Part shown: piece by piece, positions 13,945 through 60,464 of the stretch | How positions within the stretch are numbered: the first letter of the stretch is position 1 | Layout: each line of letters opens with the position of its first letter | Assembly: GCA_036399915.1 (NCBI GenBank) | Contig: DASWME010000127.1 | Coordinates: forward strand, 14,305-78,304 | Source: Thermoanaerobaculia bacterium | GTDB lineage: Bacteria; Acidobacteriota; Thermoanaerobaculia; Multivoradales; UBA5704 | Direction of reading: 5' to 3' | DNA: 64,000 nucleotides | Notes under the pieces: model-generated | What the model saw: the letters and a program-made list of their open reading frames with translations, nothing else | Told to the model about the DNA's origin: nothing | Databases searched by the model: none | Made by a program: the position numbers and the translations under genes

Positions 13945-14021
13945 TGGTCGGGACGCCGGGATTTGAACCCGGGACCCCCTGAACCCCATTCAGGTACGCT
14001 ACCAGACTGCGCCACGTCCCG
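13945..14021 (-). tRNA. tRNA-Pro (anticodon GGG).
   Basis: The reverse complement folds as a cloverleaf: CGGGACG/CGTCCCG acceptor stem with a C1:G72 pair (typical of bacterial tRNA-Pro), GCGC/GCGT D-stem, CCTGA/TCAGG anticodon stem with loop ATGGGGT (anticodon GGG), CCGGG/CCCGG T-stem with a TTCAAAT loop, and A73 plus an encoded CCA. Confidence 0.85.
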
Positions 14022-23032: not shown

Positions 23033-23072
23033 AGCCGTCCGCAGCGCCTCCCTCTTTCCGCCATGACGGCCC

Positions 23073-23100
23073 GCCCGGCCGGGGACAACCCCGGCCGGGC
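23073..23100. terminator. Bidirectional rho-independent terminator hairpin between convergent genes.
   Basis: Perfect 12-bp stem GCCCGGCCGGGG-ACAA-CCCCGGCCGGGC. Confidence 0.6.
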
Positions 23101-23123
23101 GACTCGCCTGCGCCCCAGCCCTC

Positions 23124-48925: not shown

Positions 48926-49453
48926 TCACCACTCGACGCGCAGCTTCAGCCGCACGTCCCGCCTGCGGTCACGGTAGAGGAGGAAGCCCTCGCGCCGGCC
49001 GTGCAGATAGAGGTCGCGCAGGATCTCGACGTCCCGCCGGCAGTACTGCTCCACCAGGTCGAGCCGCCCCTGGCGCACCCATTCCAGGGACTGGAGACCG
49101 TCCGCGGACTTGCTGCAACCGAGGGTCTCCTGGGCGAGGTGACCCATGCCGACGCGGAACCCGAGCCGCGCGTGGACGTCCTCCAGGAGGTCGTGGGTAG
49201 GCAGCAGGCGGGCGTAATCCTCCCCGGTGTAGCCGGAGAGGACCTGGTAGTCGAACCGCCGGATGTTGTAGCCCACCACCAGAGTGGCCGAGCGCAGGGC
49301 ATCCACCAGGGCGCGCACCTGGTTCTCGAAGAAGACCTCGAAACGCCCCTCCTCCAGGTGGCAGACGACCCCGATCGCGACCCCCATGCGGTGGGCGTAC
49401 CCCCAGCCGCCCACGTCGGCCGCGGAGCGCAGGGTCTCGAGGTCGAAGAGCAT
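48926..49453 (-). CDS. DEDD-family (DnaQ/RNase H-like) 3'-5' exonuclease, MrfB-like. This is the C-terminal part of the 1074-aa track ORF.
   Basis: Internal Met MLFDLETLRS carries the Exo I motif FDLET. Later acidic and His/Tyr motifs (GYNIRRFDYQVL, H..D) follow. It immediately follows the DUF1998 helicase. Confidence 0.65.
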   Translation of the reverse strand: MLFDLETLRSAADVGGWGYAHRMGVAIGVVCHLEEGRFEVFFENQVRALVDALRSATLVVGYNIRRFDYQVLSGYTGEDYARLLPTHDLLEDVHARLGFRVGMGHLAQETLGCSKSADGLQSLEWVRQGRLDLVEQYCRRDVEILRDLYLHGRREGFLLYRDRRRDVRLKLRVEW

Positions 49454-52150
49454 GGTATGGGGTTCGCGCTCCGGCTCCCGTCGCCGCTCCCGCCGGGTGA
49501 AGAACGAGATGGCCCGCTGGAGGATCGAGGGCTCGGCCCGGATGGGAGCGGCCGGGGCCGCGGGACCGGATCGGAGATTCTGGTGACGGCGGTTCGGGGA
49601 GTCGACACCGGGAGGCCCTCCTCCTAGCCTCCCCCCTTGCGTCCACCCCCCTCCCAGGGGGGAGGAATCTTCCTCGCCGTCGTGGTCACGTTCCCCCTCT
49701 CCCGCGGCGCGGGAGAGGGGACCAGGGGGTGAGGGCTCCCGGGCGGGGGCGCCCGGCCGGGTCAGGAACCCCCTCGCCGTCATCTCCGCCGCCATCTCCT
49801 CGATCGGCTCCACCGCCATCGCGAGATTCACGCAGACCGGCTCGCTCCAGGCCACCGCCGGCTCTTCCAGCCCCAGCAGCAGCCGCAGCGCCCGCGCCGC
49901 GCCCAATTTGTCCAGAGGCCGGTTGCCGTTGCCGCACTTGGGCGACTGCACGCAGGAGGGGCACCCCTTCTCGCAGGGGCAGCCCTCGATCAGCGCCAGG
50001 ACGCGGCCGAGCAGGTCCTTCAAATCCGCGAAGCCACGGGCGGCGATGCCCACGCCGCCGGGGTGGCCGTCGTAGATGAAGACCGCGCCGCTGCCGATCT
50101 GGGGGTGGAGCGGATAGGAGATGCCGCCGATGTCCCCGCGGTCGCACAGGGCGAGGATGGGAAAGAGGGAAATGCCGGCGTGCTCGGAGGCATGGAGGGA
50201 GCCCAGGAAGTGCTCCCCCTGGCGGCGCAGCGTCTCCTCGACCGGCCGCGGCGCCGCCCACCAGAGCCCCACCGTCTCGAACTCCACCGGCGGCAGGTCG
50301 AGCGGCGTCTGGTCGATCGTCTCCTGGCCGTGGATGCGCTTGCGCTCGAAGCCCACCACGCGCTCGGTGACCTTGAGCCGGCCGAGCCAGGCCTGGAGCG
50401 GGCCGTCGCTCTTCTCCTCCAGCACCTCCAGGATCTCGGTCTCCTTCTCGGTCAGAGGCGTCGTGAAGTAGTCGAGGTCGGCCGCCACGGCCTTCACCCG
50501 GCGCTCCTCGCGCTCCAGCGCCTCCACCAGATACTGCCGGCCGGCGTGGAGGTAGACTGCCCCCGGGTGGCACTCGTGAAGCACGCGGACGCCGTCCACC
50601 GTGCCGATCGTCCGTCCGTCCACGAGGATGGCGAACGTCTCCCCCGTCCCCCGCAGGTTGACGTAGCGCTGAGGCCTGCGGCGCAGGCAGAAGATCTCGT
50701 CCCCCTCGGCCGCGGCCAGCAGGTGCCCCTGGTCGAGGAGCTTCTCCACTCTCGTCCCATGCCGCTCGAGGTAGGGCCGGTCCTCGCCGCAGAGGGGCAT
50801 CTCGGAGGCGGCGCAGACGAGGTGGGCCCGCGACACGGGATCGTTCTCCGGGTCCACGATGAGCCGCTCGCAGGGGCGCTCCAGGAACTCCTCCGGATGA
50901 TCGAGAAAGTACTGGTCGAGCGCGTCGGGCAGGGCCACCAGGGCGGTGATGGACTCGCGGCCGGCGCGGCCCACCCGGCCCGAGCGCTGCCAGGTGGCCA
51001 TCATGCTCCCGGGATAGCCCACCAGGATGCAGGCGTCGAGACCGCCGACGTCGATCCCCATCTCCAGGGCCGACGTGGAGATCACGCCGTCCAGCCGCCC
51101 CTCGAAGAGGGAGCGCTCGATGCGCCGCCGCTCCTCGGCCAGGAAGCCGGCGCGGTAGCTCGCGACGCGCGCGGCCAGGGCCGGCTCCTGGCGGCGCAGC
51201 CAGGAGTAGAGCAGCTCGGTGATGCGCCGCGCCTTGGTGAAGACGATGGTCTTCAAGCCCGCGTTGAGCAGGCGGACGAAGAGCTGGAGGGCGGTCGTGT
51301 ACGGGCTCGCCTCCGGCCGGTAGAGCAGCAGATGCCGTCCTTCCCGCGGCGCGCCCGACTCAGAGATCCAGCGGAAGGGGCGGCCGGTCAAGGTCTCGGC
51401 GAACTCGCCAGCGTTGGCGGCGGTAGCCGAAGAGGCGATGAGCACGGGCTCGCTGCCCACGGAGCGGCAGAGCCGCAGGAAGCGCTGGAGCACGTGATGG
51501 AAGTGGCTGCCGAAGATGCCGCGGTAGGTGTGCAGCTCGTCGAGCACGATCCAGCGCAGGTCCGCCAGGAACGGCCCCCAGGCCGTCCAGTGGCCGAGGA
51601 CGCCCAAATGGAGCATGTCGGGGTTGGAGATCACCACCCGCGGGAAGTTCTTGCGGATGGCCGTGCGCTTCGCCCCCGGCGTGTCGCCGTCGTAAATCTC
51701 GCAGCCGGCGATCTCGGGCGGCAGCCCGGCCTCTTCGGCCAGGCGGCAGAACTTCCCCCGCTGATCCTGCCCCAGAGCCTTCAAGGGGAAGAGGAAGAGC
51801 CCGTGCCCCGGGCCGCCCCGCACCGCCTCCTCCAGCGCCGGCACCTGGAAGATCAGCGACTTGCCGGACGCCGTGGGGGTGGTGACCAGCACGTTCTCGC
51901 CGCGGCGCACGGCCGCGATCCCCGCCGTCTGATGGCTCCAGAGATGGGGGACGCCCCCCTTGCCGAGCGCCCGGGCAATGGGTTCCGGCAGCGGCGGGTC
52001 GAGCTCGCCATAGACCACATCGCTTCCCGGCAGGTGCGCGGCGTAGAGGAGCTGCGGGCCGAGCTTCGCGTCGAGGCGTAGCTCCTCGACCAGGGGGCCC
52101 AGCTCGGAGGACGGCGGGGGGACAGCGGAAGCGATTGCGTTACGGGGCAT
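49454..52150 (-). CDS. DEAD/DEAH-box helicase with a C-terminal DUF1998 zinc-ribbon domain (MrfA/YprA-like). The 3' boundary is uncertain because the frame stays open into the exonuclease gene.
   Basis: Walker A TPTASGKS, DExH motif VLDELH, helicase C-terminal motifs, and DUF1998 Cys cluster CPCEKGCPSCVQSPKCGNGN. A low-complexity linker of about 135 aa contains palindromes and no stop codon. Confidence 0.8.
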
Positions 52151-60370: not shown

Positions 60371-60464
60371 GGAGCCACCCTAATCTTGGATCGCATTCAA
60401 GGCTTCACCCCCCCTCCCCCCTCTCCAGCTCCGCTGGGGAGGGGGGCAAAGGCGGTAGGAGCCT

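Follow-up and report, generated by a model that had tools for sequence, protein, structure and literature searches.

An MrfA-type helicase fused to a DEDDy exonuclease in Thermoanaerobaculia, with a REP/MITE-like repeat in the predicted linker

The locus and its gene

We analyzed a 64 000-nt stretch of DNA (the window) from a Thermoanaerobaculia bacterium (assembly GCA_036399915.1, contig DASWME010000127.1, positions 14 305–78 304) and, within it, an open reading frame (ORF) that runs from a helicase into an exonuclease. A reading made from the sequence only, without database searches (the sequence-only reading), had correctly delimited this ORF of 1074 aa at 48926..52150 on the minus strand; it left two options, a genuine fusion protein or a misleading long ORF over two genes. 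Our analysis makes it very probable that the ORF is one genuine gene, with a single polypeptide of ∼118 kDa as its predicted product: a 3′–5′ superfamily 2 (SF2) helicase of the MrfA/YprA family, a disordered linker of ∼135 aa and a DEDDy 3′–5′ exonuclease. The fusion would be ancient and conserved, and the repeat found in the linker secondary. The parts of the gene are the following.

52150..48926, minus strand: fusion ORF, 1074 codons plus stop; helicase, linker, exonuclease
49943..51994, minus strand: MrfA/YprA-type SF2 DExH helicase, aa 53–736 (RecA1, RecA2, winged helix, OB-CON-MZB); phmmer against PDB 6ZNP
51416..51937, minus strand: DEAD/DEAH RecA1, aa 72–245; Pfam PF00270, E=2.5e-22; motif I TPTASGKS, motif II DELH
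50960..51283, minus strand: Helicase_C RecA2, aa 290–397; Pfam PF00271, E=1.7e-14
50645..50857, minus strand: HRQ1-type winged helix (WHD_HRQ1), aa 432–502; Pfam PF22982, E=6e-9
49949..50185, minus strand: MZB (MrfA Zn-binding, formerly DUF1998), aa 656–734; Pfam PF09369, E=6.2e-20
49454..49858, minus strand: inter-domain linker, aa ∼765–899 (∼135 codons); variable in length and sequence among orthologues (58–295 aa)
48929..49453, minus strand: predicted DEDDy 3′–5′ exonuclease domain, aa 900–1074; AlphaFold2 (AF2) model, Foldseek, Pfam, PHROG

Conservation of the fusion

A protein identical to the product of this ORF (P0001) is annotated in a Thermoanaerobaculia metagenome-assembled genome (MAG), on a contig of 130 kb. 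The full-length protein has >100 orthologues of 1000–1140 aa, with 66–91% identity at 100% coverage, all from Thermoanaerobaculia/Acidobacteriota MAGs. In a scan of one genome per species, with the exonuclease alignment A3 as the query, at least 576 genomes were found to carry a relative. We read the state of the fusion at the best 80 of these loci by asking if the upstream sequence encodes a helicase in the same frame as the exonuclease; at six of the 80 the upstream DNA was too short to judge, and these were left out. Helicase and exonuclease occupied one frame at 69 of the 74 judgeable species loci (Acidobacteriota): a complete in-frame fusion was seen in 61, and another eight were in frame and open to the contig edge. 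The frame is kept at these loci despite linker lengths of 58–295 aa.

When 1.84 billion representatives were searched with a profile, 2741 proteins containing this exonuclease domain were recovered. Helicase sequence was present upstream in 63 of the top 149 exonuclease-family representatives (full length in 32 of the 63); some of the full-length fused representatives have a low GC content and have diverged strongly. Annotated fused proteins come from Desulfobacterales, candidate division CSSED10-310 and Krumholzibacteria. In the closest relative (L001/P0002, 91% identical) the gene is again one ORF, of 1034 aa, and lacks the 114 nt in which both hairpins described below lie. Given the frequency of in-frame fusion at the species loci, its presence in other phyla and a closest relative still fused without the hairpins, we treat the ORF as a single conserved gene. 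Judged by sequence comparison, this is an ancient, conserved fusion, which Thermoanaerobaculia and Holophagales carry as a rule and which is present in other phyla too. The option of a genuine fusion protein is thus the one that the conserved in-frame architecture bears out, and we reject the misleading ORF over two genes. The sequence-only reading had said that its scenario would be refuted by distant orthologues all showing the same continuous fusion with a conserved linker; continuity was found, at the loci counted above and in other phyla, and a conserved linker was not.

The helicase

The helicase part aligns with Bacillus subtilis YprA (MrfA; 6ZNP) with E=4.2e-130 in a phmmer search of PDB, aa 53–736 being matched to residues 40–732, and the NCBIfam model TIGR03817 (DEAH-box helicase) scores 679 bits. 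Across 77 orthologues the helicase motifs (GKS, DELH) and Cys724/726/730/733/739 are invariant. With the SF2 core, the four conserved MZB cysteines (C724/C726/C730/C733) and the collinear match to 6ZNP all in place, the predicted protein is a member of the MrfA/YprA family in this part; its domain order (RecA1, RecA2, winged helix, OB-CON-MZB with zinc cysteines) is that of B. subtilis MrfA, from which it differs by the extra C-terminal linker and exonuclease domain. The four Pfam domains and the alignment to 6ZNP agree with the earlier description of a complete MrfA-like DEAD/DEAH helicase with a cysteine-bearing DUF1998 C-terminus.

The exonuclease

The exonuclease domain starts with MLFDLET, the Met being M900 (ATG at 49453..49451), and extends to the C-terminus. 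The AF2 model of the C-terminal 175 residues, made from an alignment of 63 sequences, has a predicted local distance difference test (pLDDT) score of 96.3, and its top Foldseek matches in PDB are the proofreading exonuclease domains of archaeal family-B polymerases (PolB), T7 DNA polymerase and Pol epsilon. Profile scores of the domain are 23.4 bits against Pfam PF13482 (RNase_H_2; a marginal pass of the cut-off of 22), 19.4 bits against PF01612, and E=1.3e-9 against PHROG 403, ‘DNA polymerase exonuclease subunit’. We take PF13482 to be the YprB-type RNase H-like family. The catalytic pentad D903, E905, D967, Y1036 and D1040 is invariant in alignments A3 and A6. Because Tyr1036 is invariant, and the motif Y[CS]xxD is kept in 146 of the 149 best cluster representatives of the exonuclease family, we assign the domain to the DEDDy type; in the DEDDh type a His is expected four residues before the last Asp, a position that Tyr1036 occupies here. 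The C-terminal DEDD exonuclease of the sequence-only reading is therefore well placed, as seen from the predicted fold, the Foldseek matches and the invariant acidic residues.

That reading had also called the domain ‘MrfB-like’. In role and fold the likeness to B. subtilis MrfB (YprB; 8UN9) stands: in both cases a 3′–5′ DEDD exonuclease fold is paired with an MrfA helicase; the fifth catalytic residue has the same spacing (Y1036-x3-D1040 here, H258-x3-D262 in MrfB); and structural neighbours are shared, of which Foldseek gives PolB and Pol epsilon, and a sequence profile, weakly, NrnC (for the MrfB residues, including H258, and its neighbours PolB, Pol epsilon and NrnC, see PMC11194089). In other respects the two differ, and no likeness in sequence was detected. 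MrfB is DEDDh with a C-terminal tetratricopeptide repeat (TPR) domain, whereas the window domain is DEDDy; no TPR match was found in it, and the protein ends 34 aa past D1040. It also has no free N-terminal extension, the linker being in its place. When PDB was searched with the exonuclease domain, phmmer did not match it to 8UN9, nor did two profiles at E<=10; the searches gave only weak matches to NrnC and Pol delta, and 8UN9 was absent from the top 50 Foldseek matches of the model. We characterize the domain as a putative analogue of MrfB in role and fold and do not call it an orthologue.

Stand-alone members of this DEDDy family, of ∼180–200 aa, also exist. A clean two-gene operon of mrfA and a DEDDy-family exonuclease was not found; two distant stand-alone members (L087 and L088) lie on short contigs without an adjacent helicase. 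In one of them (L088, 266–1391, logan SRR20722003) the exonuclease directly follows a 175-aa TPR protein on the same strand, an order that recalls the TPR domain within B. subtilis MrfB; the contig is short. Among close relatives, calls of short stand-alone exonucleases told us little for the most part: in two (L004, L005) the helicase is frameshifted in ‘contig_’ assemblies, and a third (L006) looks chimeric at a contig end.

The linker and its hairpins

The linker has a mean identity of 0.19 to the window protein among the 77 orthologues; for the helicase the value is 0.85, for the exonuclease 0.81. The linker is rich in Pro, Gly, Ala and Glu, and in the full-length AF2 model pLDDT falls below 50 at aa 797–891. 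Its GC content by codon position (0.77/0.61/0.82; GC3>GC1>GC2) keeps the coding pattern of a GC-rich genome. The linker thus behaves as a translated, predicted disordered tether, and the ∼135-codon low-complexity linker noticed earlier is confirmed in extent, in poor conservation and in predicted disorder.

The exonuclease-proximal part of the linker (window 49478–49620, aa ∼844–891) carries a semi-conserved motif, HxxLRxGP...PIRAEPSxLQRAxSFF, inside which the full-length model has a weak predicted helix at aa 875–885. The unstructured N-terminus of MrfB was docked on the MrfA winged helix by AlphaFold-Multimer (PMC11194089), and the motif may correspond to it.

The linker DNA contains these features.

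49694..49720: hairpin 1, perfect 13-nt arms with a 1-nt loop (CCCCTCTCCCGCG g CGCGGGAGAGGGG); palindrome analysis
49642..49666: hairpin 2, 11-nt arms with one mismatch and a 3-nt loop; perfect core of 7 bp, 49646–49652 / 49656–49662
49606..49719, minus strand: 38-codon (114-nt) segment with both hairpins, not present in the closest relative; its limits vary with the alignment
49628..49742, minus strand: in-frame copy (∼115 nt) of an inverted-repeat element like the repetitive extragenic palindromic (REP) and miniature inverted-repeat transposable (MITE) elements; left unit CCTCACCCCCTGG-CCCCTCTCC-loop-GGAGAGGGGG-AACG, right unit degenerate; nhmmer match at 49689–49742, E=4.6e-11, and alignment to intergenic copies

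Two perfect palindromes had been reported here. One is present, as the perfect arms at 49694–49720 (the interval 49692..49720 is not self-complementary as a whole); the other, at 49646..49665, is not perfect, with six mismatch positions against its own reverse complement.

The repeat family

Within the window the exact hairpin sequences occur once each, with no second exact copy, and the repeat family was recognized by comparing linkers across species rather than by exact searches. In linker DNA of different species a hairpin recurs, CCCCTCTCC, loop, GGAGAGGGG. Perfect hairpins with stems of >=9 bp have a density of 0.62/kb in linkers, 0.18/kb in helicase-coding and 0.08/kb in exonuclease-coding DNA. 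The repeat unit is CCGAGACCTCACCCCCTGG-CCCCTCTCC-loop-GGAGAGGGGG-AACG, and two inverted units make a full element of ∼105–160 nt. The window holds three copies of the family in total, the two outside the linker being the following.

34576..34681: full intergenic copy with two inverted units; nhmmer E=1.1e-9 and 1.1e-7
60402..60452: single-unit copy; nhmmer E=4.1e-6

In the copy at 34576–34681 the outer arms CCTCACCCC/GGGGTGAGG enclose two CCCCTCTC(C)/GGAGAGGGG hairpins. This copy is flanked by a BlaR1/M56-HEAT gene (minus strand, with its end at 34705) and a gene of the beta-lactamase fold, and is followed on the minus strand by a terminator-like hairpin with a T-run. The copy at 60402–60452 is in an AT-richer stretch that looks non-coding and is probably intergenic; ORFs overlap it.

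A nhmmer model of the unit gave 20 matches in 24 kb of linkers versus 30 in ∼770 kb of other DNA of the loci examined; 14 of 72 linkers of relatives were positive for the element, in both orientations. The exact 23-mer CCTCACCCCCTGGYCCCCTCTCC was present in at least 120 metagenome stretches, with an expectation of <1 by a rough base-composition estimate for a collection assumed to hold ∼5e11 bases; several of these stretches have it as inverted pairs 28–95 nt apart. Rfam has no family for the hairpin element. Like REP and MITE sequences, the element is multi-copy, short, built of inverted repeats and mostly extragenic. The label ‘REP-like’ given to the palindromes from sequence only was therefore apt, as the nhmmer matches, the intergenic copies and the metagenome 23-mer indicate.

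The linker copy in locus L019 is 86–91% identical to three intergenic copies in the same 10 kb and is opposite in orientation to most linker copies; the ORF stays open. This copy looks young, and its identity to the nearby copies together with its orientation suggests separate insertion events. As checked by hand, the consensus unit is free of stops in five of six frames. Palindromic mobile elements read through in frame are known, e.g. the Rickettsia palindromic elements (review PMC10969869), and here, as with those and other MITEs, a short multi-copy palindrome is read in frame as an extra peptide in a functional gene. The element family and the phylum are different, and the window element sits in a disordered inter-domain tether.

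Two loci have possible split forms. In a close relative (L003, 8340–8500; ena:ERZ25039606 contig_61936) the linker has a different hairpin-rich insert, GGGAGGGGCTTGTCCCCTCCC; CCTGGGGCGTGAGCCCCAGG; with the direct repeat GGGGCGACA. The insert holds a TAG stop and a frame change, and the gene calls are a helicase of 805 aa and, overlapping it, an exonuclease of 250 aa. Either the fission is real or the assembly is in error, the ‘contig_’ name being taken by us as a sign of a long-read assembly. At L029 (4400–5010; CAVXIV010000001.1) a full copy of the repeat element is found upstream of the exonuclease domain, preceded by the end of an unrelated gene that, judged by eye, resembles a PP2C/SpoIIE-type phosphatase; no helicase was present within 5 kb upstream of the exonuclease. 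The arrangement suggests that the locus was rearranged, or else misassembled, with the repeat as the breakpoint.

One could speculate that the tether is a recurrent site of landing and retention for a REP/MITE-like element widespread in soil bacteria, which is translated in frame like the Rickettsia elements, drives the variation in linker length and from time to time breaks up the gene or rearranges it (L003, L029). We offer this only tentatively, and consider it rather less probable than the contrary.

Elsewhere in the window, two other long perfect hairpins occur at 2181–2211 and 23072–23101, with stems of 15 bp and 13 bp; their sequences have no relation to the repeat family. A tRNA gene at 13948–14021 on the minus strand is the sole Rfam match in the window at the gathering threshold.

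Proposed function

In B. subtilis, MrfA is a 3′–5′ DNA helicase and MrfB a 3′–5′ exonuclease, which interact and belong to one excision-type pathway for mitomycin C damage (10.1101/426304; PMC7797055; PMC11194089). By analogy with this pair, the helicase of the fusion would load on damaged DNA and unwind the lesion-bearing strand, and the tethered exonuclease would then degrade this strand from its 3′ end; the outcome would be excision-type repair in a housekeeping chromosomal setting. Most likely, then, the fusion would couple unwinding of the damaged strand with its 3′–5′ degradation, helicase and exonuclease being partners here in a covalent, conserved fusion. The element copy would be read through as ∼38 extra residues, rich in Pro, Gly, Ser and Glu, of the disordered tether. 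Such copies would be tolerated because only the frame and the flexibility of the linker matter, and the nearly stop-free consensus unit would fit this.

A fusion of MrfA and MrfB in one organism is mentioned by Burby and Simmons (10.1101/426304, Fig. 6 legend), and such fusions are mentioned also in a survey of the YprA family (10.1101/2025.09.15.676423). As in our case, the helicase is followed by the exonuclease on one polypeptide. In the accessible parts of these sources the fusion is mentioned in passing; its extent among Acidobacteriota, the DEDDy chemistry and the repeat-invaded linker are undescribed there. The kind of fusion is already known from the literature, and the window gene adds another member.

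More distant parallels are found among other helicases. WRN has a RecQ helicase and a DEDDy exonuclease on one chain. DinG of Staphylococcus aureus carries an N-terminal 3′–5′ exonuclease (PMC12345164). Both have a helicase and a 3′–5′ DEDD exonuclease on one chain; they differ in helicase family, in the N-terminal position of the exonuclease and in their unrelated origins.

Weighing the alternatives

Several observations weigh against a single, ancient repair gene with a secondary repeat. Five of the 74 judgeable loci are not simple fusions: four have frame changes (L012, L052, L069, L076) and one has no upstream helicase (L029). Four of these five (three of the frame-changed loci and L029) come from assemblies named ‘MFD ... 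contig_’, a name that we read as a mark of long-read assembly with its liability to indel errors; the split forms L003 and L029 may nevertheless be genuine. The shorter linker of the closest relative is more likely a partial deletion than an empty site, because the left end of the element (…GCCCGGGAGCCCTCACCC…) is kept there. Most linker copies share one orientation, which bears on the choice between several insertions and one old insertion followed by decay. The exonuclease differs from MrfB (Tyr for His, no TPR, no sequence match with two profiles), and it is from MrfAB that the repair mechanism is carried over; the function of MrfAB is itself reported as species-specific.

Among the alternatives, the one that survives best is that the linker hairpins are selected functional structures, such as a translation-pausing mRNA element or a regulatory site in DNA or RNA, rather than tolerated selfish repeats. 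The family is ∼20-fold enriched in the linker versus flanking DNA, and the arms of hairpin 1 are perfect over 13 bp; the enrichment is, however, explicable by the tolerance of a disordered tether. The element is missing from most orthologues, the nearest relative included, and is also intergenic and widespread in metagenomes. In the predicted RNA fold of the region the outer arms pair around the two hairpins, and its folding energy (z = −1.37 versus composition-matched shuffles) is not exceptional for the composition. A scan for promoters and terminators gave nothing relevant in the linker, and no T-run follows the hairpins. We find selection for such structures quite unlikely.

With repair as the preferred function, a role in anti-phage defence has to be considered as well, i.e. 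the protein being an effector of the YprA/DUF1998 helicase group (DISARM, Druantia, Dpd or related). According to the literature, helicases of this group are central to several defence systems, and the PADLOC models BrxHI, SngC, DpdF and DruE do match the helicase core. These matches, though, span only the generic RecA core (aa ∼50–400), and two family-specific helicase models score far below their cut-offs, 19 bits versus 999 for DrmA and 48.6 versus 550 for DpdF; the best match, over the full length, is the repair helicase MrfA. A hint at membership in a defence island, given by the sequence-only reading, found no support in the neighbouring genes: in the window these are a histidine kinase, BON, bPH_2/SHOCT, DUF5916 and a GT20-family (Glyco_transf_20) glycosyltransferase, relatives’ loci add LEA_2 and a sigma-54 regulator, and none are defence genes. 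The published YprA tree places MrfB-associated and MrfB-fused helicases in the repair branch. A defence effector is accordingly a quite unlikely identity for this protein.

We regard it as very unlikely that translation of the long ORF yields two products, one of them a separate exonuclease initiated internally at Met900. An ATG does stand exactly at the domain boundary (49453), where the earlier reading had seen a ‘clean Met-initiated’ domain; the boundary at MLFDLET holds, and the Met does not hold as a conserved start, being present in only ∼10% of orthologues, with V, L or I in the others. Before 49453, where an internal ribosome-binding site was to be looked for, the nearest GGAG is 15 nt upstream of the ATG, and a promoter scan of the region found no promoter-like site. 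Some gene callers report exonuclease proteins of 174–226 aa, mostly from short or frameshifted contigs. The frame kept across variable linkers also speaks for a continuous product.

The scenario originally proposed, in which adjacent mrfA-like and mrfB-like genes were recently welded by a REP-like insertion that removed the stop, appears highly improbable. It accounts for a REP/MITE-like element in the linker, and the two-gene arrangement of MrfAB does exist in B. subtilis; against it, the closest relative is one ORF without the hairpins, the fusion recurs across the species loci and in other phyla with unrelated linkers, and the element is missing from 58 of 72 linkers. The causal story is thus reversed: the element entered, or was retained in, an already existing linker. 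An origin of the ORF by faulty assembly, or its decay as a pseudogene, is hardly credible, the source being a MAG and the linker GC-rich and repetitive, but an identical protein being present on the 130-kb contig, the architecture being shared by hundreds of independent assemblies and every catalytic motif being intact.

Implications

We consider the annotation question settled in favor of one predicted gene, not two, with a fusion ancestral in a large clade of soil bacteria. A naturally tethered pair of MrfA and exonuclease would be material for the study of helicase–nuclease cooperation, which is stated as open for MrfAB (PMC7797055, PMC11194089). Since the exonuclease partner of an MrfA-type helicase can apparently be DEDDy and TPR-free, annotations as ‘MrfB-like’ should be made with caution. 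GC-rich hairpins such as those in the linker call for caution with gene callers and long-read assemblies as well.

The in-frame repeat is a modest example of selfish DNA tolerated in a coding region. What remains of most interest is this repeat in the tether, along with the split forms possibly associated with it (L003, L029); if the tether were indeed a recurrent landing site, the locus would serve as a natural experiment on how selfish repeats mediate the fusion and fission of domains.

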